NCBI GenBank assembly: GCA_965207865.1
Contig: CBDBNP010000006.1
Span: forward strand, 916,015 to 980,014
DNA: 64,000 nt
Direction of reading: 5' to 3'
From: Dehalococcoidia bacterium
Lineage (GTDB): Bacteria; Chloroflexota; Dehalococcoidia; Lucifugimonadales; UBA3495
Shown here: one piece after another, positions 1,346 through 52,919 of the stretch
Numbering within the stretch: the stretch's first letter is position 1
How the letters are laid out: each line of letters opens with the position of its first letter
Translations under genes and position numbers: made by a program
Notes under the pieces: model-generated
What the model saw: the letters and a program-made list of their open reading frames with translations, nothing else
Databases searched by the model: none
What the model was told of the DNA's origin: nothing

Positions 1346-1376
1346 AACCTGATACAGCTAACAGGAGGAGTAAGAG

Positions 1377-2030
1377 ATGAGGAAACAGTTCCAACCCTCA
1401 CGCCGGCGGCCCTCCACGCCAGGGTGTCCAGCGACCGCCAGGACGTAGACCTCTCCGTCGCCGCCCAGATGCGGGCGCTCCACGACTACGCCGAGAGCAA
1501 CGGCTACACCGTGGCCCGCGAGTAGGTGGACGAGGCCGAGAACGGCAGAATCGCCGATAGGCCCCAGTTCCGCCGGATGATCGACGACGGCGGCAAGGCA
1601 CGGCCCCTTTCCAGGTGATCCTGGTCTGGAAGTTCAGCCGGTTCACCCGCAAGCGGGAGTACGCCGTGGCCTTCAAGTCCGTGCTCCGGCGCAAGGGAAT
1701 CCGAGTCGTCTCCATCACCCTAGTAGACCAACTACTTTGAAATGATGGGCGACGAGGGCAACCACAAGGGTTGCCCCTACCAGTCAGAGGCAGTTGCGTA
1801 GGGGCCGCCCCTTGTGTGCGCCCTGACCGATTCCACCAAGGCTAACCATCAATGCAAAGATTTCGCACCCTAGCAAGCCGACTACTCCCCCACCGGCAAG
1901 CTGATGGAGGCCATCATCGAGTCGGTGGACGAGTTCTACAGCGAAAATCTTGCCGAAGAAGTTCGGCGGGGAATGCGTGAGGCCGCCTCAAGGGGGTTCT
2001 GGGTCGCCAGCCGGGTCTCTTACGGCTACC
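1377..2030 (+). pseudogene. Decayed large serine recombinase, paralog of 7503..9107
   Basis: RBS AGGAGG and ATG 1377; DNA closely follows the intact LSR (ARVSSDRQDVDLSVAAQ, LVWKFSRFTRKRE, PTGKLMEAIIESVDEFYSENLAEE) but has frameshifts, a TAC>TAG stop near 1523, a 150-bp insertion, and is truncated near 2030. Confidence 0.9.
1716..1873. mobile_element. REP-doublet (REPIN/MITE-like) insertion with CACCCTAG direct repeats
   Basis: CACCCTAG at 1716-1723 and 1866-1873; two oppositely oriented GTAG-family REP palindromes at 1755-1780 and 1798-1824; absent from the intact paralog. Confidence 0.75.
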
Positions 2031-4557: not shown

Positions 4558-4758
4558 CTGCCAGCTAAACCGCTTATGAACCAGTGCCGCGTTCGATACT
4601 TTCCCCGACATCCCGTGGTCCCCGCCCATCCTTGCGCGGCTCGCCTGTTACCACAAAACCCGCCCGAATGTAATCCCTTGCAAGACCTTATGTTCGACCA
4701 ATTTCTCCCGGACAATGGAGTGTTAGACCGTCGCCCAAGGAGAAATGCTTTGACCATA

Positions 4759-6771
4759 ATGAAACCGGCAACGCCGGAGCCCGCCGAACACGCGGCGAGG
4801 AACAACCAGGCCCTGACCAACGCCATTGGAGACTACGTGCGCGCCCACCAGCGGCGGCACGGGCAGGCGAAGACCGCGGCGGCCCTGGGCGTGTCCCGCC
4901 ATACCCTGTGGCGCTACCTGGGGCGGGGCAACAGCGGGCGCGCCGTGCCCGCCGCCGTCTTGAACTGCGTGGGCCAGAGCGTCCGGGACATCGAGGCGGC
5001 CACGCTGGAGATCATCATCGACCTGGAAGGGCTGCGTCCCGACCCGGCCCTGCGCCCCCTGCGCCGGAGACTGGAGGGCGCGCTGCTGCTGGTGTGCGCC
5101 ACGCCCCTGGCCACCGTGGATGAACTGGCCCGCTTTGAACGTGTGCCCGCATCCACGCTGCGCGAACGGCTGGAGAAGCTCGTCAAGCGCGGCCTGGTGG
5201 ACACCGCATCCCACCACCTGGGCGCCCTGGGGTCGCGTCCCCAGCGCCGGTACTTTCCCACGGACAAGGGCGTCACCGCCGCCGGCGCCGCCACCCAGGG
5301 CCGCAGGCACATGCTGACGGCCTACCCGGTATCGAAGCAGTGGTTCCGGCTGCTGGCGGAGCGGCTGGACGCCGTGGCCGTGCTCTACCGCGTCGCCGCC
5401 ATGGTTGCCGACGCCGACCAGCATCAAAACCCGGTGCGGGTGGACCACTACCGCCACGGCCCCTACGACCTGCTGCTCACTCTGTCCGGTGGCCTTACCA
5501 TCGGCGTGATACGCCACGGACCGGCATTGCCCGGCTCCAACCTGCGCTACCGGCTGCGCGGCATCGAGCATCTGCCCAGCAACCATAGGCCCTTCCTCGC
5601 CCTGGTACTGACCCATGCCGACCAGGCCACCCGCCGGGCCGTCCGCGCCCTGGGCGACCCCACGGAACACCGCCGGACCTTCGTGGCCACCGAGGGGGAG
5701 CTGCTGGCCGGGGACCACACCGGCGTGGTCTGGCAGCAGGGCGGCAGCGGCCTGGGCCAGGACCCTCCAGTGAACATCGTACCCGAGACCAGCCTGGCGG
5801 ACATCCTGCCGTGGGCGGAGGGCCTGCTGGAATCATCCCACCAGTCCCTCCGCGACAACCCCAGGCCCGACGCGGACGATCTCTATTCCTACAGCGTGCA
5901 GGCAGCCATGCCGCAGCCCGCCCAGCAGCTGGCGTCGGCCCTGGCAGTGCAACTGACCCGGGGCGAGAAGGACGCGCTGGACCTGCTTTGCGCTTGGCCC
6001 CTGTGCACCCGGGAGCAGCTGGCCGGACTGATGGGCGGCGTTACCCTGCGCCGGGTCAACCAGGTGCTCCGTTCCCTCCGTGAACACGACCTGGTTCAGG
6101 AGGACGATTCCCGGCTCATGCTCACCGACCGGGGCCTGACCTGCCTGGCCCGCCGGGACCGGGCCGCCGTGGGCCTCACTCTGGACCGCTGGACCGCCCA
6201 GCCCGCCGTCTCCAACCCATCGGTCTACGCCGGAAGCGCCCTGCGCGCCCTGGCCTCCCAGATGCGCCACCAATGCGGCGTAACCGGCTTTGCCGCCGCC
6301 CTGAGCGCTGAGGTTGCCCGTTCCCAGGATTATGATCTGTTCGACCTGCTGCCTACCCACCGCGCCAGCATTGGCTACCGCTGCCACCGGACCAACTACG
6401 TGATCCATCCCGACGCCTCCTTCACCCTGGAGTACAAAGGCAAGTGGCTTCCCTTCCTGCTGGAGTTCGAGCGAAGGGCCACCACGCCCGGCCGCATCCC
6501 CCAGCGGCTGGCGTCCTACCAGCGCTACTTCGCCTCAGGCTGGGCAGAGCGGGACCACGGGGGCCACAAGCCCGGGGTGCTGTTCGTGTTCGAGACTCCG
6601 GAGAGTGAGGCGGCCTTCCTGGACGTGTCCGACGGCACGGAGGAGCTGGACGTGATCACCTCCAACGCGGAAACCCTCATGGAACAGGGCGTCCTGGGCG
6701 AGGCGTGGATCTTTCCGCCGCCCCACTCCCTGGACCGGATGCCGCTGGCCGGATTGTACCCAGTTCCCTAA
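4759..6771 (+). CDS. HTH plus tandem wHTH/PD-(D/E)xK protein, Replic_Relax (MOBC-like relaxase) family
   Basis: N-terminal HTH (TAAALGVSRHTLWRYL); two wHTH-nuclease modules; C-terminal IHPDA...FLLEFERRA; start uncertain (4690 or 4759). Confidence 0.75.
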   Translation: MKPATPEPAEHAARNNQALTNAIGDYVRAHQRRHGQAKTAAALGVSRHTLWRYLGRGNSGRAVPAAVLNCVGQSVRDIEAATLEIIIDLEGLRPDPALRPLRRRLEGALLLVCATPLATVDELARFERVPASTLRERLEKLVKRGLVDTASHHLGALGSRPQRRYFPTDKGVTAAGAATQGRRHMLTAYPVSKQWFRLLAERLDAVAVLYRVAAMVADADQHQNPVRVDHYRHGPYDLLLTLSGGLTIGVIRHGPALPGSNLRYRLRGIEHLPSNHRPFLALVLTHADQATRRAVRALGDPTEHRRTFVATEGELLAGDHTGVVWQQGGSGLGQDPPVNIVPETSLADILPWAEGLLESSHQSLRDNPRPDADDLYSYSVQAAMPQPAQQLASALAVQLTRGEKDALDLLCAWPLCTREQLAGLMGGVTLRRVNQVLRSLREHDLVQEDDSRLMLTDRGLTCLARRDRAAVGLTLDRWTAQPAVSNPSVYAGSALRALASQMRHQCGVTGFAAALSAEVARSQDYDLFDLLPTHRASIGYRCHRTNYVIHPDASFTLEYKGKWLPFLLEFERRATTPGRIPQRLASYQRYFASGWAERDHGGHKPGVLFVFETPESEAAFLDVSDGTEELDVITSNAETLMEQGVLGEAWIFPPPHSLDRMPLAGLYPVP

Positions 6772-7223
6772 ATACAACTTTGCCGCGCCGGGGATTTCCT
6801 GTAGGGGTGGCCCAACGGGCACGATTGGACAAAATTCCTGCAACTTGCCGCCATCGTGTCCCGTTACATCCCCGCCACTGCAATGTGTTGCAGGGCCGAT
6901 GCGTCAGGCCGCCACCGCAGAGATACCATACTCAACCAACCGGGTATGCAATCCAGGTATGAACGCCAGCGACAAACACAGGGCCACGGAATCTGTCCGA
7001 TAGGGACAAGATTGACGTCGAGCGTGTCCAAAAGGGTCAGCGGAGCCGTTCCCGTGGTTTCCCATAGTTCCCAAAAGGGAAGTCGTTACCATTCCCGTGT
7101 CTGCGTGCAACAGGTCGAAAGGGTGCGAAATGTTGCAGGTTCCGGACCCGGCGGACACCCTCGCCATTCTTCACCGACGGCGGGCCGAGCGCTGGTTGCC
7201 CGGTGATATCCAGTAAGACAACG

Positions 7224-7232
7224 TGGTATAAT
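7224..7232 (+). promoter_or_regulatory. Extended -10 promoter (TGnTATAAT) for the RHH-LSR operon
   Basis: TGGTATAAT just upstream of the AAGGAG RBS and ATG 7252. Confidence 0.55.
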
Positions 7233-7251
7233 GGCCGCACAAGGAGTGCAC

Positions 7252-7479
7252 ATGGCCCCCATCATATCCAGGAACACCGAGACCGTCACGTTCTCATTGC
7301 CACCGGCGATGGCCCAGAGCCTGCGCCATGTGGCGAAGGAGGAGGAGCGCACCGTTAGCGAACTGCTTCGGGAGGCCATCCGCCTGTACATGGAGGAGCG
7401 GGAGTGGCGCGTGAAGGAGCGGATGCAGCGGCGGTCCCGCCGGGCGAACGCGGCTGAGACTACGGGAGACGAGACATGA
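7252..7479 (+). CDS. CopG/RHH DNA-binding protein
   Basis: TVTFSLPPAMAQSLRHVAKEEERTVSELLREAIRLY; AAGGAG RBS. Confidence 0.85.
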   Translation: MAPIISRNTETVTFSLPPAMAQSLRHVAKEEERTVSELLREAIRLYMEEREWRVKERMQRRSRRANAAETTGDET

Positions 7480-7502
7480 ACGAGAGCAGCAAAGGAGGCG
7501 AG

Positions 7503-9107
7503 ATGAAAAACCGGCAGTTTCAACCCCTGACCCCGGCGGCGCTCTACGCCCGGGTCTCCAGCGACCGCCAGGACGTGGACCTTTCCGTGGCCGCCCAGCT
7601 TCGGGCCCTGCGGGACTACGCCAAGAGCAACGGCTACTCCGTGGCCAGGGAGTACGTGGACGAGGCCGAGAGCGGCCGCATCGCCGACCGGCCCCAGTTC
7701 CGCAACATGATCGACGAGGGCGGCAAGGCCACGGCCCCTTTCCAGGTGATTCTTGTTTGGAAATTCAGTCGCTTCACCCGCAAGCGGGAACACGCGGTAG
7801 CGTTCAAGTCCATGCTCCGGCGCAAGGGCATCCGCGTTGTCTCCATCACCGAGCACGCCGACGACTCCCCCACCGGCAAGCTGATGGAGGCCATCATTGA
7901 GTCCGTGGACGAGTTCTACTCGGAAAATCTTGCCGAAGAAGTAAAACGGGGAATGCGGGAAGCGGCGTCCCGTGGTTACTTCCTGGCGTCCCGCGCTCCC
8001 TTTGGGTACAAGCGCATCAAGGTCAGCGACGGGGTGAAGGACCGCCCCACCCTTGAGGTTGACCCGGTGGCCGCGCCCATCGTCAGGGAGATATTCGAGA
8101 GTTCCCGCCGGGGCAACGGGCTCGCGGAAATCTGCAAGGAATTGAACGGTCGGGGCATCACCAACCGGGGACGCCGCTGGCAGAAGAACGTGGCCCACTA
8201 CCTGCTGACCAACGAGGCCTACACCGGCACCGCCGTCTGGGGAGTCAAGAGCAAGGACGAGAAGGCGGGTGAGCCGGTAAGGGTGGAGAACGCCTGGCCC
8301 GCCCTGGTTTCCAGGGAGACTTTCGAGGCGGTGCAGCAGGGTCTCCACCAGCGGGCGCCTACGGTGGCGGGGCCCGCACGGGTGGGCAGCCAGTACTTGC
8401 TGAGCGGACTGCTCCGCTGCGGGGTGTGCGGCAAGCCCTACTCGGCCCAGGGAGCCAAGAGCGGCCAGTTCGCCTACTACGTCTGCGCCAGCCTGTTCCG
8501 GGAGGGAGCGGGAGCGTGCAGCAACGGGCGATACCTGAACGCCGCGAAAGTGGAGTACCTGGTGATCGAGAAGGTCAGGGAGCGGATTCTCACCGAGGAG
8601 ACCATCACCGAGCTGGTGACCCTGGTGGCCGAGGAGATCGACAACCTGGCCGGTGAGGTCAACGGCAGGCTGACGGCCATCAACAGCGAACTATCCGACG
8701 TGGATACCCGGTTGGAGAACCTCTACCAGGCTTTGGAGACCAAGCAGTTGCCCATCGAGGTGATCTCGCCCCGCATCCTGGCGCTGAAGAGCCGCCAGGA
8801 CCAGCTGACGGCGGCGAGAGAGGGAGCCGAGGCCCAGTTGGAGCAGCGGCGGGCGGAACTGCCCACCAGCAAGGAGATCAAGGGGTACGTGGCCGACTTC
8901 CGCGCACTCTTCCAGGAAGGGACGTTCCCGGAGCGGAAGGCGCTCATCCGCAACTTCGTGCAGGGCATTGAGATCGTGGAGGACGAGGCGGTTCTGACGT
9001 ACACAATCCCCATGCCGCAGGACGGGGTTACGTCGGAATCGGCCTCGGTTCTTGATTTTGTCCAGTCCGGCCCACCATACTTGACGGTAGACAGTACCGG
9101 CCCGTGA
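7503..9107 (+). CDS. Large serine recombinase (LSR1): resolvase, recombinase and Zn-ribbon domains
   Basis: YARVSS catalytic motif, KFSRFTR, LLSGLLRCGVCG...YYVC, coiled coil; RBS AGGAGG. Confidence 0.95.
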   Translation: MKNRQFQPLTPAALYARVSSDRQDVDLSVAAQLRALRDYAKSNGYSVAREYVDEAESGRIADRPQFRNMIDEGGKATAPFQVILVWKFSRFTRKREHAVAFKSMLRRKGIRVVSITEHADDSPTGKLMEAIIESVDEFYSENLAEEVKRGMREAASRGYFLASRAPFGYKRIKVSDGVKDRPTLEVDPVAAPIVREIFESSRRGNGLAEICKELNGRGITNRGRRWQKNVAHYLLTNEAYTGTAVWGVKSKDEKAGEPVRVENAWPALVSRETFEAVQQGLHQRAPTVAGPARVGSQYLLSGLLRCGVCGKPYSAQGAKSGQFAYYVCASLFREGAGACSNGRYLNAAKVEYLVIEKVRERILTEETITELVTLVAEEIDNLAGEVNGRLTAINSELSDVDTRLENLYQALETKQLPIEVISPRILALKSRQDQLTAAREGAEAQLEQRRAELPTSKEIKGYVADFRALFQEGTFPERKALIRNFVQGIEIVEDEAVLTYTIPMPQDGVTSESASVLDFVQSGPPYLTVDSTGP

Positions 9108-10654
9108 AGGGCCACCTCCTCGGCGACCCTTCCAGGTATCCGGCTGTCTTCGGGCATTGGGATTGTGTAGCGCACGACGGCGTTGCCGGGTTTCACCACG
9201 ATCTCCTTGACGAACGACTCGATGAAAGCCCTCCGCTCGGTAAGTTCGCTCTCGTTCAGGAACTCGCTCATATCCTCAGCGTAGGCGGTGATGGTCTTCA
9301 CATCATCCAGGACCACCCGTCGCTGAGACAGCAGCCCCCTAGCCTCCTCCGCCGTGGCCTCCAACCGCTCCTGACGCTCCCGGTGGTCCCTGATGCGGGG
9401 CTTGAAGTCGTCGATGTCCATGTCGGTGGTCTCCACCAGGTTGTAAAGCCGTTCCAGCCTGCGCCGAACGTCGGCCAGTTCCGCCTCCACCGTCTCCAGC
9501 TTCACCCGCTGCTCCTTGGCCACGCCGTCCATCTCCTCGTCCACCAGCTTGACCAGTTCCCTGATATTGCCCTCGGTCAGGATGTTGGTGCGAATCTTCT
9601 CCACCACCATCTCCTCGAAACGGCGGGCGTTCAGCCTGGGGGCGTCGCAGGCCCCGCTGCCCCGCTTTTGCAGCGACTGGCAGACGTAGTAGGCAAACTG
9701 GCCGCTCTTGGAGTCCTGGCCGGAGAGGGCGCGGTTGCACTGGTGGCACTTGACCAGCCCGCTGAGGAGATAAGAGCTGCCGACCCGGCGGGGGTGGGCC
9801 TTTTTCGGCGCGCGAGAGCGCATCTGCCGGTTCACCTTGCGGAACTGGGTCTTGGTGACGATGGCGGGGAAAGCTTTCTCCACCCTTACCGGCTCCGCCT
9901 TGTCCTTGGCGTTGGTCCCCCAGACCAAAGTGCCGGTGTAGCTCTCGTTTCTCAGGATGATGTGAATGCCGTTCTTGGACCAGAGCTTGCCGGTGGGATT
10001 GGCGATGCCCTCGTCGCTCAGGGTGCGGGATATGTCCAGCATCCCCTTGCCCGCCTCGGCCAGGTCGAAGATTCGTTTGACCACCGGGGAGGTTTCCGGG
10101 TCCGGCTCCAGGGTGGGGCGCTTTTTCGCCCCGTCCTGGACCATCACCTTGCGGTAGCCGTAGGGCACTCTGCTGGTGACCCAGAACCCCCGCGAGGCGG
10201 CCTCCCGCATCCCCCGCGTCACTTCCTGGGCCAGATTCTCCGAGTAAAATTCGTCCACGCTCTCGATGATGGCCTCCATCAGCTTGCCCGTGGGGGTGTC
10301 GTCGGCGTGCTCGGTGATGGAGACCACGCGGACGCCCTTGCGCCGCAGCAGGGACTTGAAGGCCACGGCGTGCTCCCGCTTGCGGGTGAAGCGGGAGAAT
10401 TTCCAGACCAGGATTTCCTTGAAAGGTGATTCGGGCCTGCTGGCGGCGTCGATCATCTTGCGGAACTCGGGCCTGTCGGCGATACGGCCACTCTCGGCCT
10501 CGTCCACATACTCGCGGGCGACGACGTAGCCGTTCCTGTCGGCGTAGTCCCGGAGCGCCCTGAGCTGGGCCGCCACGGAGAGGTCCACGTCCTGGCGGTC
10601 GCTGGACACCCGGGCGTAGAGGGCCGCCGGGGTGAGGGTTGCTATCTGGCTCAT
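8723..10654 (-). CDS. Large serine recombinase (LSR2), probable ICE integrase; last ~116 codons run antisense through LSR1
   Basis: YARVSSDRQ, LLSGLVKCHQC...YYVC; homology with LSR1 ends at VLSTVKYGG near 9072. Confidence 0.93.
   Translation of the reverse strand: MSQIATLTPAALYARVSSDRQDVDLSVAAQLRALRDYADRNGYVVAREYVDEAESGRIADRPEFRKMIDAASRPESPFKEILVWKFSRFTRKREHAVAFKSLLRRKGVRVVSITEHADDTPTGKLMEAIIESVDEFYSENLAQEVTRGMREAASRGFWVTSRVPYGYRKVMVQDGAKKRPTLEPDPETSPVVKRIFDLAEAGKGMLDISRTLSDEGIANPTGKLWSKNGIHIILRNESYTGTLVWGTNAKDKAEPVRVEKAFPAIVTKTQFRKVNRQMRSRAPKKAHPRRVGSSYLLSGLVKCHQCNRALSGQDSKSGQFAYYVCQSLQKRGSGACDAPRLNARRFEEMVVEKIRTNILTEGNIRELVKLVDEEMDGVAKEQRVKLETVEAELADVRRRLERLYNLVETTDMDIDDFKPRIRDHRERQERLEATAEEARGLLSQRRVVLDDVKTITAYAEDMSEFLNESELTERRAFIESFVKEIVVKPGNAVVRYTIPMPEDSRIPGRVAEEVALHGPVLSTVKYGGPDWTKSRTEADSDVTPSCGMGIVYVRTASSSTISMPCTKLRMSAFRSGNVPSWKSARKSATYPLISLLVGSSARRCSNWASAPSLAAVSWSWRLFSARMRGEITSMGNCLVSKAW
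9048..9097. other. Putative att site: imperfect palindrome formed by the 3' ends of both LSR genes
   Basis: GTTCTTGATTTTGTCCAGTCCGG-CCCA-CCATACTTGACGGTAGACAGTAC; the two arms align as inverted repeats. Confidence 0.6.
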
Positions 10655-10692: not shown

Positions 10693-10733
10693 AGGCCGCC
10701 GCCGGTTGTCTGCAATCGGCGGCGGCCTTTTTT
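10693..10733. terminator. Strong hairpin with T-tract on the + strand, between the antitoxin-like gene and LSR2
   Basis: AGGCCGCCGCCG...CGGCGGCGGCCT followed by a T run. Confidence 0.55.
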
Positions 10734-11025
10734 ATTGCCTTTCGGATTCGTCTATGGGGGTTACCTGGAGCCGGAAGCCCAGGGCCCGGGTCACCTTCAG
10801 GACGGTGTTGAACTCGGGGTTGGCCCCGGCCCGCATGGACTTGTACAGGCTCTTCTCGCCGAGGCCGGTCTCCCGGGCCACCCGCCGCATGCGGTGGGCG
10901 CGGGCCATCCGGGCCAGAATGCCCGTGATGGCTTCCAGGTCTCCCGCTGCCAGGGCTGCGTTCAGGGCAGCCGTAACGTCTTCCTCAGTGGCAAGGTAGT
11001 CGGCCCGGGGTTCTGAACTGCCCAT
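10732..11025 (-). CDS. Orphan addiction-module antidote protein (HI1420-like HTH)
   Basis: ADYL..EED...LNAAL..GD...ARAHRMRRVARETGLGEKSLYKSM...NPEFNTVLKVTRALG; no toxin gene adjacent. Confidence 0.85.
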   Translation of the reverse strand: MGSSEPRADYLATEEDVTAALNAALAAGDLEAITGILARMARAHRMRRVARETGLGEKSLYKSMRAGANPEFNTVLKVTRALGFRLQVTPIDESERQ

Positions 11026-11109
11026 CGCTGCCGCCTCATCGTCGTGAATTTGACCTTGATTCCACCTCAAATGTTATCCCTTCGGATACCATAGCGCAAT
11101 AGTCAAACG

Positions 11110-11358
11110 TCAGTCAGGATCGGCCAGTTCAGCCTGCTTGCGCAGGTGGACGCGGACGATGACCTTGGCCAGGATGCGCAATCCTTTGCGCACCTGCTCC
11201 CGCTGTCTTGCAGTGTACTGGGGTAATTCCGGTGTTGTTGATGCCCCTGTTGCCGGTGATTGCACCCGTTTGCGGCGCGCCTTGGAGGATTCACTGTTGG
11301 GGCGCTCCGATATGTTCTTTCCTGTGTCTTTCTGCATATCCTCTCGTTGCCGGTTCAT
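11110..11358 (-). CDS. Small basic protein (GLRILAKVIVRVHLR family)
   Basis: Co-oriented with neighbours; has a paralog near 4324. Confidence 0.6.
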   Translation of the reverse strand: MNRQREDMQKDTGKNISERPNSESSKARRKRVQSPATGASTTPELPQYTARQREQVRKGLRILAKVIVRVHLRKQAELADPD

Positions 11359-11423
11359 GGTTGGACCGCCGGCGCAGGCGGATGGGACGGGCGCCGGCGG
11401 CGTTAGGCGTTAAGTGTTGCGGT

Positions 11424-11765
11424 CTAGGTCCCGTCCTGCTCGTCCCAGGCAAGGTCCTCCGTCAGGTCCTCCCCCAGGAGGATGTCCAGGCCGCCGGGAA
11501 TCCGCATAGCGAACCTGACCAAGGAGAGCATGGCCCCGCCGCAGGGCTCCACGTCCTCGGCCCAGCGGCGCACCTGCTTGCGGTCCACCCCGATGGCCTG
11601 GGCCAAGCCGCTCCAGCTGAGGCCGCTGGCCTCCTTGAGGCGGAGCAGCCGCTGCGGGAAGTCCGGGGGCAGCACACCGTTCCCCTGGGGCACGGGGCGG
11701 CCGCCCATGTTGATCCTGTCCGAGTACCCGTCGAAACGGGGCTCGTTCTTACGGGTCGTCATCAA
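11424..11765 (-). CDS. XRE-family HTH regulator
   Basis: DFPQRLLRLKEASGLSWSGLAQAIGVDRKQVRRW; paralog of 40939..41184. Confidence 0.8.
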   Translation of the reverse strand: MMTTRKNEPRFDGYSDRINMGGRPVPQGNGVLPPDFPQRLLRLKEASGLSWSGLAQAIGVDRKQVRRWAEDVEPCGGAMLSLVRFAMRIPGGLDILLGEDLTEDLAWDEQDGT

Positions 11766-12030
11766 TGTCCTCCAATCTGAAAAGCTGGTGAAAATCGTTC
11801 ACGCCGAGGACACGGAGCATCCTTCTGCGGATGCGGCCCGAGGGCGTCCGGCTCCCGTTGACCAGCTTGGAGACATAGGAGGGAGTGACCCCCATTTCGC
11901 CGGCGAGCCAGTTCTGGGACCGGCCCAGTAGGGCCAGCTTTTCCCAGAGGGCCGCCGTATCGAGCCGGACGACGGTCCGTCCCCCACGCCCCCGAGGTCC
12001 CCGGTCGTGACTGGTATGTTGCAAGCACAT
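11749..12030 (-). CDS. XRE-family HTH regulator
   Basis: SQNWLAGEMGVTPSYVSKLVNGSRTPS; AAGGAGG RBS upstream. Confidence 0.8.
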   Translation of the reverse strand: MCLQHTSHDRGPRGRGGRTVVRLDTAALWEKLALLGRSQNWLAGEMGVTPSYVSKLVNGSRTPSGRIRRRMLRVLGVNDFHQLFRLEDIDDDP

Positions 12031-12094
12031 TGCTTATTTCCTCCTTAGTTGAATGAAGCGATTTCGGATGATTTGGCGCGTTTTCAATAGCGTT

Positions 12095-13723
12095 TCAGCG
12101 TGCCGGAGGCAGACGCTCCGGCTGCCGGTCGCCGGGGTTCCGCCAGGCCCGCCCCAGCGTCCCCGGGGTTTCGAGTGCGGTCCGGTGGGAGACCCATAGG
12201 GGGACATTGACCCCCGCCCTCTTCATCTCCTCAGCCGCCAGCCGCAGAAAGTGTTCTGCAACGAGGGCTTCGTCGAAGACCACCAGGACGTCGGGCCTTA
12301 CGCCATGGTCGTCGGTGGGCCTGGGAGTGGAGTAATAGCGCAGGTAGGGGGCGAGGCGGTCGGCCATGGTGCCGGGCCGGACGGCGCGGCGCTCCCACTC
12401 CAGGAAGAAGGCCCATTCGACGGGGCCGCGGCTCACAAGTCCAAAGGCGTCCGGGTGTACCGAGCGCAGACCGCCCCTGTGCCGGAAGTGTCTTGACGCC
12501 CGGTGCGGCGGGTCCAGTTGGCGGACCTCCCAGCCCAGGGCGCGGGCCTGATGCGCCAGGGCCGAGATGAACTCATGGACGGCGCCGGTGTGGACGATGT
12601 TTCTCAGCAGCTGCCTGGTCCTGCTGCCGGAAATGTTGCGCCAGTGGAGGGGCTCGTCCTCATCCAGGGGCGAAACGCTCCAGCGCTTCCTGGCCGCGCC
12701 CACCGAGGTCCGGTCGCGGCGGGAAAGCAGTGCCAGTCCCTCATCGGTGAGGGCCAGCCACCCAGCCGTGCCCCCTAGCCTGGTTACAAGCTCGTTGATT
12801 TCCAGGGAGACCGCGATCTGGGAGGCGCGGGGTTCGGAGACGTTGAGCAGGGCCGCCAGTTGCTTCCGCGACAGCCATGGCCAGTCGGCCAGCAGGTCCA
12901 GGGCGCGTTTTTCCGTTTGCTTGAGCAGGGAGGGCAGGAAGTGCCCTTCGTCGTTGTTGCTGGTGATTTCCGCTTTCGGTGGCGGTTCCTCCTCTATCAC
13001 CCGTCCGCCGGGTTGAAGACGTTTCAGCGCGGATCGCAGGTCCAGAGCAGCGTTGACGGCGGACGGCCGCCAGATGCGGTGTTCCGGCCCAGCCAGTGCC
13101 GCGTCCCGTTCCAGGGCAAGCAACGCGGGTACGGGAGTGCGGGCCAGCAGCCGGCGGGCGTGTCCCAAGCGCACCTCGTCCGGGACCAGCACCAGGACGG
13201 CTCCGGGGAGCGGGCCCTCGGCCAGCCGCCTCACCCGCTTGGCGAAGCCGGTGCGGTCGGCGGTGGCGCCCAACCGCAGGATGCCAAGGGTGCGGCCGCC
13301 GGGCAGGGCGATGGCGGCGTCCAGCGGCGCGGCCCGGTACCAGCGGAACCGGACGGGATGAGCGACGTTGGCGACGGCGGCGGCCAGCCTGTAGATGACG
13401 CCCAGGGCGTCCAGTCGTCCCAGCAGTACGCGCATCCACCTCTTTGACACGGGGCGGGAACGAAGCAGGCCGTCCAAGGCGACGCCGTTGATCCCGGCCA
13501 GGCGGCACAGGCCGTCGCCGTTCAGGTAATGGCGACGGGTGGAGGGAAGCAGGCCGGTGGCGTGAGAAAGGGAGGCAACGTATCCGTATTCCTCCAGTTT
13601 TCCGACGCCCCGGTACACCGCGCCCCGGGACCAGCCCGTGACGGCGGTCAATTCCAGGCGGTCCAGGAAGGGCATCTCCGCCAGCGCTCCCAGCAGTTCG
13701 GATTCCCAGGACGAGGCCCTCAT
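12095..13723 (-). CDS. Replic_Relax/MOBC-like relaxase candidate with internally duplicated wHTH-nuclease module
   Basis: VHPDAFG...FFLEWERRA in the C-half; start overlaps the VirD4 stop. Confidence 0.75.
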   Translation of the reverse strand: MRASSWESELLGALAEMPFLDRLELTAVTGWSRGAVYRGVGKLEEYGYVASLSHATGLLPSTRRHYLNGDGLCRLAGINGVALDGLLRSRPVSKRWMRVLLGRLDALGVIYRLAAAVANVAHPVRFRWYRAAPLDAAIALPGGRTLGILRLGATADRTGFAKRVRRLAEGPLPGAVLVLVPDEVRLGHARRLLARTPVPALLALERDAALAGPEHRIWRPSAVNAALDLRSALKRLQPGGRVIEEEPPPKAEITSNNDEGHFLPSLLKQTEKRALDLLADWPWLSRKQLAALLNVSEPRASQIAVSLEINELVTRLGGTAGWLALTDEGLALLSRRDRTSVGAARKRWSVSPLDEDEPLHWRNISGSRTRQLLRNIVHTGAVHEFISALAHQARALGWEVRQLDPPHRASRHFRHRGGLRSVHPDAFGLVSRGPVEWAFFLEWERRAVRPGTMADRLAPYLRYYSTPRPTDDHGVRPDVLVVFDEALVAEHFLRLAAEEMKRAGVNVPLWVSHRTALETPGTLGRAWRNPGDRQPERLPPAR

Positions 13724-33938: not shown

Positions 33939-36314
33939 ATGAACCTGTCCGGTTTCATCGACACCTTCAAGGACGCCATAGCCAAGCGGGTGGTGGATTC
34001 CTACCCGCCTCTCTACCGGCCCTCGGAAACCCCGGTCAGGCTGCCCCGGCTGCTGCGCACGCCCATGGGCGGCCAGGAAGACGCCATCAAGGGCACGGCC
34101 CTCTCCCTCCAGGCGCATAGGGGCACCACCGTCGTCGGCGAGATGGGCACCGGCAAGACGTTCATCGGCGCTGCAGCCGCCCACGCCGCTGGCTTCCGTC
34201 GGATTTTGATCCTCTGCCCGCCGCACCTCACGCGAAAGTGGAAGCGGGAGGTGGAGGACACGGTGCCGGGCGCGCGAGCCGCCATCGTCGCCTCCATCAC
34301 CGACCTGGAGCGGCTGCGGCTGTCGGTGGGTCCCGCGCCCCTCTTCGCCATCATGTCCCGGGAACGGGCCAAGCTGTCCTACCGCTGGCAGCCCGCCGTA
34401 ATCGAACGCTGGGCCACGGCGGGCTTCAACGGCTACGGCGGCAAGCTGGTACGGGACGAGCAGACCGGCGAGCCCTTCAAGATCCCCTGCTGCCCCACCT
34501 GCTACGCCCAGGTGGTAGACAGGGACGGGGTTCCCCTGACCGCCGAGGAAATGCGACGCAAGCGGCGCACCTGCCACCTGTGCCGCTCGGCGCTGTGGCA
34601 GGCCGACGGCAGCGGCCCCAAACGGTTTCCCCTGGCCGACTACGTGAAGGTCAGGATGCGGGACTTTTTTGACCTGCTTATAGGCGACGAGGTCCATGAG
34701 TATAAGGGAAGGGGTTCGGCTCAGGGCATCGCCGCCGGGGTGCTGGCCGACGCCTGCGGCAAGTCCCTCACTCTTACCGGAACGCTCACCGGCGGCTATT
34801 CCTCGACCCTTTTCCACCTGCTGTACCGGTTCTCGCCGGACATCCGGGCCGAGTTTGGCAGATCGGAGGAAGGCCGCTGGATACAGCGCTACGGCTTCCT
34901 GGAGGAGACGGTGCGCCACTCCGACGACGGCGACGCCTTCGAGGACGGGCGCAACAGCCGCCGCAAGGGATACCGCAAGACGGTGCGGGAGCGTCCCGGC
35001 CTGGCGCCCTCTGCCCTGTTTCACCTGATCGGCAACAGCGTATTTCTCAGGCTCTCCGACGTGGCCTCGGGGCTGCCGCCCTACGAAGAGCAGGTGCTGC
35101 TGTCGGGCATGGACCGGGAGACGGACCACACCGGCTTCTCCCAGCGCAAGGCCTACGACCTGGTGTTCGACACCCTGCGCCAGGCGCTCGCGGCGGCCTT
35201 GGCCACGGGTTCCAAACGGCTGCTGGCCACGTATTTGCAAACCCTGCTGGCCTACCCAGACGGCTGCACCCGGGGCGAGACGGTATTCGTCCCCCAGACC
35301 GGCAACGTGCTGATACAGATGCCGCCCCTGTCCGAGGACAAGCTCTACCCCAAGGAGCAGGCGCTGGTGGACCTGGTGGCCGCCGAGCGGCTGGCCGGCA
35401 GGAAGGTGCTGGTCTACGCCACCCACACGGGAACCCGGGATATCACCGAGCGGATGGAGCAGTTCCTGACCACCCACGGGTTTCGGGTGGCGGTGCTCAA
35501 GGCGGACTCGGTGGCCCCGGACCGGCGGGAAGCCTGGGTGGAGGAACGGGTCAAGCAGGGCATCGACGTGCTCATCTGCCACCCCAGGCTGGTGCAGACC
35601 GGCCTGGACCTGATCGATTTTCCTACTCTCTGTTGGTTCGAGACGGATTACAGCGTTTACACCATGCGGCAGGCGTCGCGGCGCTCCTGGCGCATCGGGC
35701 AGAAGCGCCCGGTGAAGGTGGTGTTTATGGCCTACCGGAACACCATCCAGGCTGAAGCGCTCAAGCTGGTGGCCAAGAAGCTGCAATCTTCGCTGGCGGT
35801 GGAGGGGGAACTGCCCGAGGACGGGCTGGCCGCCTTCGGCGACGACGGCGACGATCTGATGCTGGCCCTGGCAAGGCAGATCGTCAGCCGCGATGAGACC
35901 GACGCCGATGGCGAATCGCTGGAGGACGTGTTCGCCCGCGCGCGGGACACCGAGGCCAGCGCCGAGGAGCTCCTGGTGGACGACAACTGGAAGGTCGTCG
36001 AGGTTGAGCCGGAGACCGTCACGGTCAACCGGAACGGGCATTACTCCAAAAACAGCAGACATGGCGACGGCATCGAGGCGACGGCGGAGCTGGTCTTGGG
36101 TAACGGCCACTACGCCAACGGCTACGGTAACGGCCACCAAGACGTTGCGCCCGCCGAAGGGCAGCAGTCCCTCTTCTCGTGGGCTGAGTTCCTGTCCGAG
36201 GAACCGGCGCGGCCCAACGGACGGAAGGGGAAGTCCCAGCCGGCCGCCGCGTCCCTGTTCGATTGGGCCCTGGAAAAGGAACAGGAACAGGAATTGGTGG
36301 GAGCAGGCCGCTAG
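33939..36314 (+). CDS. SF2 (SNF2-like) helicase with Zn-ribbon insertion
   Basis: GEMGTGKT, DEVH, LTGT, VQTGLDL, QASRRSWRIGQ; CPTC...CHLC. Confidence 0.92.
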   Translation: MNLSGFIDTFKDAIAKRVVDSYPPLYRPSETPVRLPRLLRTPMGGQEDAIKGTALSLQAHRGTTVVGEMGTGKTFIGAAAAHAAGFRRILILCPPHLTRKWKREVEDTVPGARAAIVASITDLERLRLSVGPAPLFAIMSRERAKLSYRWQPAVIERWATAGFNGYGGKLVRDEQTGEPFKIPCCPTCYAQVVDRDGVPLTAEEMRRKRRTCHLCRSALWQADGSGPKRFPLADYVKVRMRDFFDLLIGDEVHEYKGRGSAQGIAAGVLADACGKSLTLTGTLTGGYSSTLFHLLYRFSPDIRAEFGRSEEGRWIQRYGFLEETVRHSDDGDAFEDGRNSRRKGYRKTVRERPGLAPSALFHLIGNSVFLRLSDVASGLPPYEEQVLLSGMDRETDHTGFSQRKAYDLVFDTLRQALAAALATGSKRLLATYLQTLLAYPDGCTRGETVFVPQTGNVLIQMPPLSEDKLYPKEQALVDLVAAERLAGRKVLVYATHTGTRDITERMEQFLTTHGFRVAVLKADSVAPDRREAWVEERVKQGIDVLICHPRLVQTGLDLIDFPTLCWFETDYSVYTMRQASRRSWRIGQKRPVKVVFMAYRNTIQAEALKLVAKKLQSSLAVEGELPEDGLAAFGDDGDDLMLALARQIVSRDETDADGESLEDVFARARDTEASAEELLVDDNWKVVEVEPETVTVNRNGHYSKNSRHGDGIEATAELVLGNGHYANGYGNGHQDVAPAEGQQSLFSWAEFLSEEPARPNGRKGKSQPAAASLFDWALEKEQEQELVGAGR

Positions 36315-36412
36315 ACCGTAAAGGCACCCGGGAGAGGCCGCCAACCAAACGGCGGCCTCCCCGCACAACGCAACCCAACCGAAACAGCACCATTCACTAA
36401 AGGAGACCAATC

Positions 36413-36619
36413 ATGGCACGCATCTTTGTGTACGACGACCGCGAGTTCCCCGACCCTGACCCGGAAATGAGCGTGGAGCAGGTGAAAGCGACCCTGGCCG
36501 ACTTCTACGGCGAGATCGCAAACGCCTCGGTCAAGGAGACCACCCGGGGCGAGGACACCATCTTCGAGTTCCAGCGGCGGGTGGGCACCAAGGGGGCCTT
36601 CGCCTCTGCCCATAGCTAG
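36413..36619 (+). CDS. Prokaryotic ubiquitin-like protein (PRTRC system protein C-like)
   Basis: RIFVY...PDPDPEMSVEQVK...Y.EIANA...FEFQRRVGTKG followed by AFASAHS. Confidence 0.88.
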   Translation: MARIFVYDDREFPDPDPEMSVEQVKATLADFYGEIANASVKETTRGEDTIFEFQRRVGTKGAFASAHS

Positions 36620-36631
36620 GAGGCAGTACAG

Positions 36632-36862
36632 ATGGACAACCTGACCTTCGCAGGTCTGCTGGCAGATATTCCGTCGGCAGGCCTGAAAATCACCGAGCTG
36701 GCGGCGGAGCTCACCCTGCCCGACGGCGGGCTGGACCTGGACGCGGCGGCGGCCCGCCAGGGGGAGGTGGAACTGGCCTGCGCCCAGGCCCAGGACTATG
36801 CCACCGCAACCAACCGGCTGCTGGAGGCGCTGAAATGGCAACTGCGGCCCCGCCGGCACTGA
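36632..36862 (+). CDS. Small helical protein in the Ubl cassette
   Basis: AGGAGG RBS; between the Ubl and F-like genes. Confidence 0.7.
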   Translation: MDNLTFAGLLADIPSAGLKITELAAELTLPDGGLDLDAAAARQGEVELACAQAQDYATATNRLLEALKWQLRPRRH

Positions 36863-37683
36863 GCAACTTGGCCGAAAGGCTCCTGCGGCGTCCGCCGTCG
36901 CTGAGGGAGCTGATCGTCCGGCTGGGCTACGCCGAGGACTACGCCTGGTTCGCCGGGCTGGCCCACCGACTCTTTCCCGACAAGGCGGAAACGATGCTGG
37001 CGATACCCGACGTGGGGGAGCGGCTGGAACGCTTCGCCCGGCTCTTCGAGGAGCGCCACTTTCCCCTCTACGCCCCCTATCTTGAATTCTACGTGGACGA
37101 GGGCGAGGACCCGCCCTTCACCTGGCTTAGGCGAGGCATCCCCTTCCAGTTGATCGGCATCGGCTACGACGGGCTGCATGAGATGTGGGACGGCTGCCGG
37201 GAGGGGTTCTCGGCGCTGGCGCTGCTGGCCGAACTCCCCGACTTCTACAGCGACGAACCCGGCGGGCTGCGCACGGCCTGGCTGGAGTCCGCCGCCCGGT
37301 GCATCCCCCAGGAAACCCTACTCCGCATACCTACGGGCGGCATTCCCCTGGATGTCCTCACCGAGGCGGTGCAGGACACGAGGTATGCGGGCGCGGCCCA
37401 GGCCGCCGCCTGGGTGAGGGCCGAGACCGGCAACTTCTTTCTCGACCACTCCTTTGAGGATGGCGACTACGACGGCTTCTCCGATCCCTGGGAAGAGGAA
37501 ATCATCGCTGAGGGCACCGAGGAGTGGCAGAGGGCCAGTGCGCTGATGGACTCGGTGGTGAAGCTGGCCGATTGGCTGGAAGGAGACTTGCCCAGCCGGT
37601 TCGCCGAACTGCTGGAATTCATCCTGCCCCGGCTGCCCGAACCAACAACACAACTGGAGGAAAACGATGATGACGACCAATGA
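36835..37683 (+). CDS. Acidic helical protein in the position of PRTRC protein F
   Basis: Gene order Ubl-X-E2-JAB-E1; start uncertain. Confidence 0.6.
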   Translation: MATAAPPALSNLAERLLRRPPSLRELIVRLGYAEDYAWFAGLAHRLFPDKAETMLAIPDVGERLERFARLFEERHFPLYAPYLEFYVDEGEDPPFTWLRRGIPFQLIGIGYDGLHEMWDGCREGFSALALLAELPDFYSDEPGGLRTAWLESAARCIPQETLLRIPTGGIPLDVLTEAVQDTRYAGAAQAAAWVRAETGNFFLDHSFEDGDYDGFSDPWEEEIIAEGTEEWQRASALMDSVVKLADWLEGDLPSRFAELLEFILPRLPEPTTQLEENDDDDQ

Positions 37684-38380
37684 CACTCACCGGACCGAGT
37701 GTTCCCTGCCGGGCCCGGACGATCTGCCCCGGGACCAGCTCCAAGTCCAACTGGAGGTCTACCAGGGAACCATCCTGCTGCGGGGATTCGAGGCTGACCG
37801 CAACTGGGTCAGGACCGTCTCGGCGGATGAGATCGCCAACGTGTTCATCCGGCACCTGGGATTCTCGTCGGGTCTCTTGCCCGAAAACGCCCTCTGGTGG
37901 AACCAGGGGGAGACCGGCCGGGTGGTGGCCCTGTGGCGCCCGCCCCAGGTGTGGCCGGTGGCGTTGCAACGGGAGGCGTTCCAGCCTCCCGCCCGGCTCC
38001 GGCTGCCCATGCCGGGACTGGTCTTCGTCTGCTCGCCGGGCCGGGCCCCCTGGGTCTACGCCGCCCTGGAACGGCCCACGGATCCCGAGCAGCAGCTCTA
38101 CCGCGCTCCCGCCTTCAACGTCTTCCGCGACGGCCGGGTCTGCCCTGGCAGCCACCGCTTCCCAGAGGAGGTGGGACGTATACCCGAGTCCTTCTTCCAG
38201 TCCTTCTTCTCCCTTACCGGAGATACCAAGGACCGGTCGAAGCGACACCCCGACAACCTGAATGCGTTATGGGAGGAATTTGATGGAATGGCTGAGTACC
38301 CGGTTGAGGACCTGGTTCCCCAATGCACTGTGGGCCACGTCATGGCGGCCAGCGAAGGGAGACGGGGCTACTACCCCTAG
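37667..38380 (+). CDS. Prokaryotic E2 family D (PRTRC protein B-like)
   Basis: GLLPEN.LW...LPMPGLVF...LYRAPAFNVFRDGRVCPG with candidate catalytic Cys. Confidence 0.88.
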   Translation: MMTTNDTHRTECSLPGPDDLPRDQLQVQLEVYQGTILLRGFEADRNWVRTVSADEIANVFIRHLGFSSGLLPENALWWNQGETGRVVALWRPPQVWPVALQREAFQPPARLRLPMPGLVFVCSPGRAPWVYAALERPTDPEQQLYRAPAFNVFRDGRVCPGSHRFPEEVGRIPESFFQSFFSLTGDTKDRSKRHPDNLNALWEEFDGMAEYPVEDLVPQCTVGHVMAASEGRRGYYP

Positions 38381-39005
38381 CCTCGGCGCTGCCCCGGTGG
38401 GCTACCTGGTGAACCAACCCGCCGGACTCTCCGGAACCCAGGGCGTGGGCTACGACTACGTGCTGGGCTCCGGCGGCCTCTACGTCCAGTCGGAGAGCGC
38501 CCACCTTACGGCGCGAATGCTGGTCGCTCCCGCCGAGGTGCGGGGTCTGGCGCCCGTGTCCGAAAAGCTGGAATTGGCCCACGGCCCGATACCGGCCCAC
38601 GTCTTCGAGCTCGGGCTGGGCTGGATGCTAGCGGCGCCGGACACCGAGCGGTTCTTCGCCGTCCGGTGGGACGGGGGCGCCTACCGGCTGGTGGTGCCGC
38701 CGCAGGAAGGAACGTCGGCTTCTCTCACCTACCAGCCGCCCACCGGCGTCGTTGCCGAGTTCCACTCCCACGGCAGACACCGGGCCTTCTTCTCAGCCAC
38801 CGACGACCGGGACGAGCAGGGCTTCCGCGTGTACGGCGTCGTGGGACGCCTGGATGCCCCTGCGCCCGAAATGGCCCTTCGCGTCGGCGTTTACGGCCAC
38901 TTCGCGCCCCTGCACTGGTCCCAGGTCTTCGACGGCCCGCTCTCACCGGGTCCGCGGCTACCGGGCCAGAAATCCGAACCAACATCAAGCAACCCACAAA
39001 TATAA
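38262..39005 (+). CDS. JAB/MPN metallopeptidase (PRTRC protein A-like); true start probably downstream
   Basis: E...EFHSHGRHRAFFSATDDRDE...YGVVGRLD...RVG.YG. Confidence 0.9.
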   Translation: MRYGRNLMEWLSTRLRTWFPNALWATSWRPAKGDGATTPSLGAAPVGYLVNQPAGLSGTQGVGYDYVLGSGGLYVQSESAHLTARMLVAPAEVRGLAPVSEKLELAHGPIPAHVFELGLGWMLAAPDTERFFAVRWDGGAYRLVVPPQEGTSASLTYQPPTGVVAEFHSHGRHRAFFSATDDRDEQGFRVYGVVGRLDAPAPEMALRVGVYGHFAPLHWSQVFDGPLSPGPRLPGQKSEPTSSNPQI

Positions 39006-39020
39006 GGAGGTAACGCAACC

Positions 39021-39806
39021 ATGCCCTACTACCTAGACAACCAATTCCTGCTGGACAACCCTTGGATCACCGTCGTCGGCTGCGGCGGTACCGGCGGCTT
39101 CGTCGCCGAGGGCCTCTGCCGCCTGTTCCAGGGCCGCGACGCCACCGTAGTCATGGTGGACCACGACCGGGTGGAACCCCACAACCTGCTCCGCCAGAAT
39201 TTCCACGCCGATGATATCGGGAAGTTCAAAAGCCAGGCGCTGGCCGACCGGCTGGCGAAAGCCTACGACCGGCCCATTGGCTACTCGGTCTATCCCTTCC
39301 GGGAGGAAGAGTGCCGCTACCCCGGCCTCTCCTCCCACGACGGCCTGATCATCGGCTGCGCCGACAACGCCGCCGCCCGTCGGGCCATGGCCGATTGCCT
39401 GCCCGGAGACCCCTGCCGCTGGCTCATCGACGCGGGCAACGACACCAACTGGGGCCAGGTCCTCGTCGGCAACGTGGCCGAGAGGGTGGTCCTGGAGGAA
39501 CCACCCTTCACCGGCGATACCTGCCACCTGGCCCCGGCGCCCACGCTGCAACGCCCTGACCTGCTGACCGCCGTGTCCACCCGTCCGCCCGACGTGGACT
39601 GCGCGGCAGCCCTGGACCTGACCGACCAGGACCCCACCATCAACCAGATGATGGCCTCGCTGGTGTTGCAAGTGGTCCGCCGCATGGTGGCGGGCACCTG
39701 CCCATTCCTGGGCCTCTACCTGGACATGGACCTGGGCACGGTCACCCCCACCTACGTCACCCCGGAGGCGGTGGCCCGGTTGGTAGAGCGCACCGACTCC
39801 GCCTGA
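39021..39806 (+). CDS. E1/ThiF-family adenylyltransferase (PRTRC ThiF-like)
   Basis: VVGCGGTGG, DHDRVEPHNLLRQ, GKFKS, IGCADN, WLIDAGN..GQV, DCA. Confidence 0.92.
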   Translation: MPYYLDNQFLLDNPWITVVGCGGTGGFVAEGLCRLFQGRDATVVMVDHDRVEPHNLLRQNFHADDIGKFKSQALADRLAKAYDRPIGYSVYPFREEECRYPGLSSHDGLIIGCADNAAARRAMADCLPGDPCRWLIDAGNDTNWGQVLVGNVAERVVLEEPPFTGDTCHLAPAPTLQRPDLLTAVSTRPPDVDCAAALDLTDQDPTINQMMASLVLQVVRRMVAGTCPFLGLYLDMDLGTVTPTYVTPEAVARLVERTDSA

Positions 39807-52141: not shown

Positions 52142-52532
52142 GGGTGTCCCTCCTTCTTCGACACTCCTCCCATGGCACCCCTGGCGGTAATTCCGGCGGG
52201 TTCAGCCGTTATTGATGGTCGCGCTGGGAGAGAGTTATCCGTATATCTGATATTTAATATACGGATAACTAGGGTTGGCGGATTACCTATATCGTCGTGC
52301 AATGATCAGAAACGGTTGTTGTAGCTGGATGATGGCGTTGAAACCCCTTAGACGTGGAATCCGTGGCTGTGGATCTGGCAACCGTTGACCTCCCACCCGC
52401 CTCGCAAGTCAAATTTGGCTGCAGCAGCGAGGGGCAAGAGTAAGATGGGGTGGAACACCCGATAACGACAAAACGCCAAGCGTGAATCAGGTTCTATACT
52501 GACTTGGAGACACTGGAAAAGGGAGGGTAAGG

Positions 52533-52919
52533 ATGAAGACTTACTTAGTTGGACAGAAGATGGGCCGGATGGCATATCTTCTGGCGATGGCCGTCTTGGT
52601 TACTTTCGTAGATGCTCCCGTCAACGACAAAGCGTTGGTTTGGACTTTCATGAGCCTCTGCTTCCTCGCCGTTGCGTTCGCCCCGAGCCAGTGGCCGGGC
52701 TGGAGGCAATTGCCATCGCTGGTGATCCTTTATATTCCGACAATAGCCGCGCTCGCAGCGTCCCTCTTTATGCTGGCGCACGCAGGGGGGCTCGGTGTGG
52801 TATCGGCCCTCGCTGTAGGAATGGCGTGGGCAGGAGCCATTGGCGGCGCTTTGACAAACTTGACGTCAGCAATAACCCAGTTGATGGGTCAGTTACGACG
52901 CTATTGGCGGGGCCGCTGA
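52533..52919 (+). CDS. Small polytopic membrane protein
   Basis: GGAGG RBS; about four hydrophobic segments. Confidence 0.6.
   Translation: MKTYLVGQKMGRMAYLLAMAVLVTFVDAPVNDKALVWTFMSLCFLAVAFAPSQWPGWRQLPSLVILYIPTIAALAASLFMLAHAGGLGVVSALAVGMAWAGAIGGALTNLTSAITQLMGQLRRYWRGR

Follow-up and report, generated by a model that had tools for sequence, protein, structure and literature searches.

Two genes for large serine recombinases (LSRs), designated LSR-A and LSR-B, converge and overlap in a 64-kb stretch of Dehalococcoidia DNA, referred to here as the window (C6:916015-980014 of the source genome, G000, whose contigs are written C1, C2, C4 and so on). Unprefixed coordinates are those of the window. 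A reading made from the sequence alone, hereafter the sequence-only reading, had proposed such a convergent pair, and both open reading frames and their domains are confirmed. Each protein contains the Resolvase, Recombinase and Zn_ribbon_recom domains of Pfam. The PF00239 match has E = 4e-33 in LSR-A and 6e-33 in LSR-B, PF07508 and PF13408 are matched in both, and both possess the motif YARVSSDRQ. A segment of about 100 residues lies between the zinc ribbon and the last conserved block. The proteins are 57% identical over 535 aa, with 86% identity in the catalytic domain and 41-57% in the DNA-binding parts. At the DNA level, a 456-nt inverted repeat of 84% identity links the 5' parts of the two genes (within 7476-10654); exchange of domains between elements residing in one genome, or gene conversion, may account for this repeat and for the high identity of the catalytic domains. 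Recombinase activity and attachment-site (att) function are predicted for both LSRs. Their last conserved codons flank a shared core, GGCCCACCA, which is the subject of most of what follows (Table 1).

Table 1. Features of the window around the LSR-A/LSR-B joint; att assignments are predictions
Feature	Position	Strand	Description
Decayed LSR gene	1364-2030	+	Remnant of the N-terminal part of another LSR gene, interrupted by a 150-bp repeat at 1719-1868
LSR-A side module	4576-7479	+	Replic_Relax protein (4576-6771) and ribbon-helix-helix protein (7231-7479); Pfam
LSR-A	7476-9107	+	Large serine recombinase, 543 aa; conserved protein ends at Gly-Pro-Pro (9069-9077)
LSR-B, full frame	8723-10654	-	Large serine recombinase, 643-aa frame
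LSR-B, read-through extension	8723-9067	-	Antisense to LSR-A; 114 residues plus stop; context-dependent, not conserved as protein
P arm	9048-9068	+	Putative attP-type half-site of the LSR-A element, within codons V-L-D-F-V-Q-S of LSR-A
LSR-B, conserved part	9068-10654	-	Up to Gly-Gly-Pro
Shared core GGCCCACCA	9069-9077		Identical to the 3' end of tRNA-Ile(gat)
LSR-A tail	9078-9107	+	Nine context-dependent residues plus stop
Q arm	9078-9097	-	Putative attP-type half-site of the LSR-B element, within codons V-L-S-T-V-K-Y of LSR-B
LSR-B side module	10732-13723	-	HigA-like antidote protein, two helix-turn-helix (HTH) proteins, Replic_Relax protein; Pfam
Backbone of the putative conjugative element joined to LSR-B	13720-52322	-	Pfam, blastn

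The terminal codons of the two genes had been described as homologous and as facing each other across the joint. This is borne out, 13 of the 23 bases of 9048-9070 being the same as in the reverse complement of 9075-9097 (binomial P = 0.003 at a per-base match probability of 0.27). The arms match across the joint because the codons of the two LSRs are homologous. A DNA hairpin at the joint was considered as well and rejected, since its predicted energy of -7.5 kcal/mol (z = -0.2) is no better than that of shuffled sequences. Neither gene stops at the joint. LSR-A continues for 10 codons beyond the core to its stop at 9107, whilst the LSR-B frame runs antisense into LSR-A for 115 codons including the stop, in good agreement with the 116 or so given by the sequence-only reading. 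Long antisense frames are common in this DNA of 65% GC. No terminator is present between LSR-A and LSR-B; the sole terminator-like match lies inside LSR-A, and such matches are no commoner here than in shuffled sequence.

The identity of the core points to a tRNA gene as the target. There are 48 tRNAs in the genome according to ARAGORN, and none was found inside the 64-kb window. The tRNA-Ile(gat) gene at C6:889615-889691 ends ...CCATCCAGGCCCACCA / ...GTCCATCCAGGCCCACCA and is followed by AGCTGGATAAAATCAAGAAC, an arm designated P', which is the mirror image of the last LSR-A codons. Two further tRNA genes, tRNA-Ala(ggc) on C2 and tRNA-Val(gac) on C8, are likewise followed by P', and both of these joints lie upstream of correctly oriented A copies, at distances of 17.3 and 27.8 kb respectively. 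For the LSR-A copy in the window, the nearest candidate for a left joint is that at tRNA-Ile, 35.4 kb upstream; the two sites are tRNA-Ile-core-P' at C6:889683 and P-core-Q' at C6:925083. The equivalent mirror arm of LSR-B, Q*, is found together with the core at C6:84939, C6:21339, C1:37712 and C7:728967. The left-end interiors of A-type elements have little DNA in common beyond about 60 nt. Within the P' arm (for instance at C6:889692-889760 and C8:45530-45586) about 16 outward-reading codons of the form ...NLN..(K/R)KVLDFIQ are present in most copies, in frames that are mostly only 7-58 codons long; these could be the relic of a recombinase tail or the result of a constraint at the DNA level.

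Comparison of the copies within the genome separates the two sides of the joint. There are six A-type copies (93-100% identical in amino acid sequence) and seven further copies 55-59% identical to A, which comprise four B-type copies (84-100% identical to LSR-B), one member of a 71% lineage and two members of a 67% lineage. The latter two adjoin tRNA-Arg(cct) and tRNA-Ala(tgc), with the LSR proximal to the tRNA. In four of the six A-type copies (window, C2, C6:50948-54105 and C8) LSR-A faces a convergent LSR. In blastn comparisons, homology between the window and the lone A copies (C1 and C7) extends to 9080, with 90% identity of 4802-9080 to C1:33378-37655, and homology to the lone B copy on C4 (94%) starts at 9069, the conserved part of LSR-B being 99% identical to this copy. 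The interval common to the lone A and lone B homologies contains the core, and beyond the core all copies diverge. The comparison of synteny that the sequence-only reading had proposed thus finds breaks at the joint, with alternative flanks on both sides. The hybrid joint P-core-Q' occurs four times in the genome and the reciprocal joint Q*-core-P', in the order B-A, three times. On C1, 81 nt (C1:37652-37732) lie between two cores, in the arrangement P-core ... Q*-core-P'. The ends of this segment can pair like a tRNA acceptor stem, with a terminal ACCA, but ARAGORN does not call it as a tRNA; an A-type LSR of another genome (L045) is followed by this flank too.

In the attP-type (phage-type attachment) site reconstructed for the A element, P-core-P', 19 of 25 positions obey a symmetry centred between 9072 and 9073, and in that for the B element, Q*-core-Q', 20 of 25 do so. 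The hybrid site in the window is symmetric at only 13 of 25 positions. On this symmetry, the central dinucleotide is probably the CC at 9072-9073, which agrees with the earlier placement of the junction centre at CCCA (9071-9074). The bases to the left of the central CC are GGC, GCT and CGC at the tRNA-side joints, where they are the tRNA's own, and a constant GGC on the P side, so that crossover can be placed within CCACCA. Counted from the probable centre, GTCCA occupies positions 9-13 in both the P arm and the tRNA-Ile half, and a more distal GTTC..GA occupies positions 18-25 in P and 14-19 in the tRNA, a shift of 4-6 bp. For the Listeria integrase, the zinc-ribbon motif has been placed 5 bp nearer the centre in attB (the bacterial attachment site) than in attP (Rutherford et al. 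2013, PMC3783163), and the shift agrees with this rule. The T-loop and acceptor of the tRNA may thus represent an attB-type half-site, which would explain the use of several tRNAs ending in CC-A-CCA. Read along the recombinase gene, the sites have opposite polarity, P-GGCCCACC for A and Q-GGTGGGCC for B. With one target core and opposite polarity, the LSR of A is expected to be distal to the tRNA and the LSR of B proximal to it.

Related loci in other genomes reveal a similar picture. A scan of genome contigs yielded 80 loci, nearly all of them from metagenome-assembled genomes of Dehalococcoidia or Chloroflexota; to judge by titles and run labels, many of the related records come from sponge and marine samples. 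Of the 80 loci, 73 possess both the P arm and the core. Across 72 loci, the P arm and the core have column conservation values of 0.94 and 0.92 respectively, compared with 0.76-0.83 in the 90 nt upstream and 0.49 just past the core. At 28 of the 73 a converging LSR gene, complete or a remnant, meets the A-type end with its 3' end precisely at the core; some 60% of the A-type ends have no recombinase opposite them. Matches to a convergent LSR extend over 150 residues or more at 23 of the 80 loci, in one case about 180 nt away with a tRNA-Met between. These partners are 58-85% identical to LSR-B and their A members 88-94% identical to LSR-A. Since partner identity varies whilst A identity is steady, one A lineage must meet several partner lineages, at least four. 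The flank mirrors a tRNA T-loop in 10 of the 73 A-type loci, and at one locus (L090) a full tRNA-Arg starts at the core on the opposite strand.

The reciprocal sample comprised 30 B-type loci, one per genome, from 121 genomes of the same family. An A-type P arm abuts 13 of them (12 of 29 without the window), a called tRNA abuts five (three Ile, one Lys and one Ala) and a tRNA-Ile-like fragment one. A Q*-type mirror flank is present at two (L161 on G027:C2 and L173 on G084:C1), which could represent a B-B tandem or an attP-like joint, and the remainder have other flanks. In 89 of the 121 genomes the tRNA-Ile gene has this identical 3' end. Among 30 of these tRNA-Ile loci, seven have a convergent LSR whose Gly-Gly-Pro codons overlap the end of the tRNA, two of these LSRs being B-type (81-84% identity), and the P' arm is clear at two loci and diverged at one. 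Thus the states in which B alone and A alone occupy tRNA-Ile both exist in relatives. The genomes of the family are kin, and the counts of loci are not counts of independent events.

The most probable explanation, to which a probability of about 0.85 is assigned, is that window positions 9048-9097 constitute a hybrid attachment site at which the right end of the LSR-A element is joined to the left end of a putative conjugative element carrying LSR-B. The core used by both would be the nine terminal bases of tRNA-Ile(gat), but the two recombinase genes would be oriented in opposite directions with respect to it. An A-type element would have (tRNA)-core-P' as one boundary and P-core-(flank) as the other, the recombinase gene reading outward at the boundary farther from the tRNA. 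LSR-A would occupy the right-hand end of its element, LSR-B the left-hand end of its own, and both would point out of the element; one element would have entered a site already occupied by the other. The order tRNA-A-B at one site would bring both recombinase genes to converge on one core, and each LSR gene would read on into whatever lies beyond because it has no stop within its own element. A and B are probably independent elements stacked at one tRNA-type site, and the joint between them is real and common in these bacteria. The convergent overlap follows from known integrase biology, as a by-product of lineages of opposite polarity stacking at one site. This corresponds to one of two alternatives offered by the sequence-only reading, namely that one element integrated into the att site of another, and that alternative is supported: the A and B ends occur apart, have many flanks and are both found on the tRNA-Ile core.

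A number of observations weigh against this explanation. Neither an excised circle nor an empty site of these elements was seen in the metagenome contigs searched. The joint predicted for excised A, P-core-P', had no match in these contigs, and a P' flank was found in none of the nine that contain the P arm and core (four have LSR-type and five other flanks). A flank with weak likeness to P' (13 of 19 positions, judged by eye) occurs at just one of the 73 genome loci, L064. On the LSR-B side a right-hand end could not be located: no Q-like arm (at most 4 mismatches) lies downstream on the contig, and the break in homology at about 52322 is without a core. The 35 kb from tRNA-Ile to LSR-A may contain more than one element, as the decayed LSR gene lies inside it. 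Finally, on inspection of the sequence, the distal part of the Q arm would serve LSR-A poorly as an attB-type half-site, its likeness to such a site being confined to the region near the core, so that A may have entered a B-occupied site or B an A-occupied one.

Four other accounts of the joint have to be weighed against stacking. The second alternative of the sequence-only reading was that A and B form a single composite element, with attP between two convergent recombinase genes which would come to lie, outward-facing, at its opposite ends after integration. Such an element would fit the att-like character of the P-core-Q joint and the recurrence of the A/B pairing. It is very unlikely, however, in view of the lone A copies (C1, C7) and lone B copy (C4), which have no LSR of the other type at a plausible distance, and of the pairing of the same A lineage with at least four LSR lineages. 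B-type LSRs and A-type P' arms also each abut tRNAs directly, the former tRNA-Ile. Furthermore, the reconstructed attP_A and attP_B are each more symmetric than the hybrid. The lone ends, the promiscuous partners and the lower symmetry of the hybrid together argue against one element with two recombinases, and this part of the sequence-only reading is not supported. A and B might instead have fused by recombination between their attP sites, or be mobilised together after accretion, the pair spreading as a unit. Both joints expected from attP_A x attP_B exist (P-core-Q' and Q*-core-P'), four pairs are present in one genome, and the contrast between 86% identity in the catalytic domains and 41-57% in the DNA-binding parts might permit mixed synapses. 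However, sequential integration at one tRNA core gives the same two joints, the lineage of A's partners varies, and recombination of attP with attP is not known for serine integrases (abstract of Rutherford et al. 2013, PMC3783163), so that a fused or co-mobilised pair is considered quite unlikely. Related to this is the suggestion that the recombinase-gene tail of each lineage doubles as a landing half-site for the other, with mixed A/B synapses formed through the 86% identical catalytic domains; this is regarded as an unlikely refinement. If it were true, A+B composites could move or be held as a unit, with convergent read-through coupling their expression.

The overlap could also be regarded as a regulatory device, in which the state of integration rewrites both C-termini and mutual antisense transcription controls directionality. 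That the tails change with context is clear: the LSR-A tails differ among the six copies in the genome, with lengths that include 9, 26 and 30 aa, and in the four B copies the frame from the VLSTVK motif extends for 124, 124, 87 and 24 residues, or 114, 114, 77 and 14 past Gly-Gly-Pro. The lack of a terminator between the genes is in keeping with such a device, and the same possibility was raised for the dsiB gene of Dehalococcoides by McMurdie et al. (2011, PMC3146451). Over the 73 loci, however, the conserved A-type protein always ends ...VLDFVQSGPP and its frame then continues for 0 to more than 600 unrelated codons. Given that conservation of the protein invariably stops at GPP or GGP, that long antisense frames abound in this GC-rich DNA and that most A-type ends have no recombinase facing them, a regulatory role appears highly improbable. 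The earlier claim that recombination rewrites the C-termini therefore stands for the tails after GPP/GGP, which differ in every context, but these tails are unconserved read-through. No inverted partner site that could form an inversion switch is present nearby, the joint containing a single hybrid site. The chance that the joint is a chimera, made in assembly by connecting two contigs at a short repeat, is minimal. The core is indeed a repeat at which assembly graphs branch, and short Logan contigs start at 9070 or end at 9073, which only shows branching of the graph at the core. Contigs of four Logan runs, in which at most 0.38 of the sampled words were present, gave short pieces of related copies (at most 262 nt) and no informative joint. 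Four loci of this genome nevertheless have the same joint, as do numerous assemblies made independently, complete chromosomes included, which disposes of the objection that the sequence-only reading had itself raised.

The stacking of A and B invites comparison with other integrative systems. Targeting of tRNA 3' ends is usually linked with tyrosine integrases. In the accretion arrays of integrative and conjugative elements (ICEs), integrative and mobilisable elements (IMEs) and cis-mobilisable elements (CIMEs), the classic cases involve tyrosine recombinases and are arranged head-to-tail. As in these arrays, several elements here share one core beside the target gene and form hybrid joints; unlike them, two serine-recombinase lineages of opposite polarity give rise to tail-to-tail recombinase genes. 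The archaeal integrases of the SSV type are tyrosine recombinases with attP inside the integrase gene, which is split by integration. An att site within the recombinase coding sequence is common to both systems, but only an unconserved tail changes in the present case.

Among the literature listed on serine recombinases that target tRNA genes, no description of the LSR-A/LSR-B family was found, and only the study of McMurdie et al. (2011) came close. The ssrA islands of Dehalococcoides described there (PMC3146451) are the closest known case. A large-type serine recombinase of about 540 aa, DsiB, is encoded at the island edge. The 3' end of dsiB invariably runs into the att site, and the stop of the gene falls outside the island, even in a neighbouring island. 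The C-termini of DsiB proteins are divergent, and the islands form tandem arrays at a tRNA-like target, a stacking termed 'accretion' by these authors. The islands share a module of six genes, among them those for DsiB, a small recombinase DsiA, RecF-like, ParB and Mom proteins and an embedded tRNA-like gene. The present elements resemble the DsiB islands in having a large-type recombinase of similar length at the edge, in the overlap of the 3' end of the LSR gene with the att site, in a stop outside the element, in divergent C-termini, in tandem arrays at a tRNA-like target and in the host class, Dehalococcoidia. They differ in their targets, which are tRNA-Ile, tRNA-Ala and tRNA-Val rather than ssrA, the gene for tmRNA; in this genome the tmRNA gene is at C1:84039-84391, and the LSR matches on C1 are at 36051-37652 and 413430-413705. 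They also differ in their neighbours (ribbon-helix-helix, HTH, HigA-like and Replic_Relax proteins rather than DsiA, RecF, ParB and Mom), and in having two lineages of opposite polarity which yield convergent overlapping recombinase genes, an arrangement not seen described in the accessible part of PMC3146451. With a target other than ssrA and without the six-gene module, they represent a variant of the DsiB-island design and not a member of it. The LI/A118 integrase of Listeria, for which an attP/attB geometry has been defined (Rutherford et al. 2013, PMC3783163), is similar in its three-domain protein, its attP of about 50 bp, its inverted arms around a central dinucleotide and an attB distal motif displaced inward by about 5 bp. 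The attP predicted here differs in overlapping the recombinase's own last codons and in having the 3' end of a tRNA as target, and its geometry is deduced from sequence only.

The element joined to LSR-B is putatively conjugative. Its backbone encodes a coupling-protein-like ATPase, a VirB4/TraC-like ATPase, a primase, a helicase, an E2/JAB/ThiF operon and a large RTX/leucine-rich repeat (LRR) protein, and includes an insertion sequence (IS) and a second Replic_Relax gene. Matches are to TrwB_AAD_bind (E = 3.7e-6), the TraG P-loop, AAA_10 and TraC, and Replic_Relax is a possible relaxase. The adjacent Prok-E2_D, Prok-JAB and ThiF genes at 37667-39806 constitute a ubiquitin-like conjugation cassette, and the protein of 2124 aa encoded at 42060-48434 contains RTX repeats, LRR, fn3 and cadherin domains. 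The IS, with a DDE_Tnp_1 transposase, occupies 48516-49851 and recurs at numerous sites across the genome in copies of 99.6-100% identity, among them a tandem of three at C6:419100-423132 and a further two at C7:722281-724962. The second Replic_Relax gene (50378-52141) adjoins the point at about 52322 where the homology of the LSR-B element to other copies ends (blastn). Past this point, in 52300-64000, several 1-kb windows have a lowered GC content of 0.51-0.55; a fusion helicase of 1706 aa and of the DEAD plus UvrD type (56467-61587) and a DUF6615 protein are encoded there. At the other end of the window, coding sequence for LRR repeats at 1-296 has many diverged copies upstream on C6 and on C1, C5, C7 and C8. 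The 150-bp repeat in the decayed LSR gene has about 19 other copies in the genome (80-91% identity) and looks like a miniature mobile element.

For annotation, these findings mean that the overlap does not represent a fused or extended protein, and that LSR-B is better called as far as Gly-Gly-Pro plus an arbitrary tail. More broadly, they point to a large family of elements with large serine recombinases in uncultured Dehalococcoidia, which would target the conserved 3' end of ordinary tRNA genes. The predicted attP of these elements copies the T-loop and acceptor of the tRNA, with the spacing rule of phage serine integrases. Since the recombinase gene itself contains the att arm, a single sequence yields both enzyme and arm, and the family would thus provide many natural pairs of enzyme and site, of use in prospecting for integrases.

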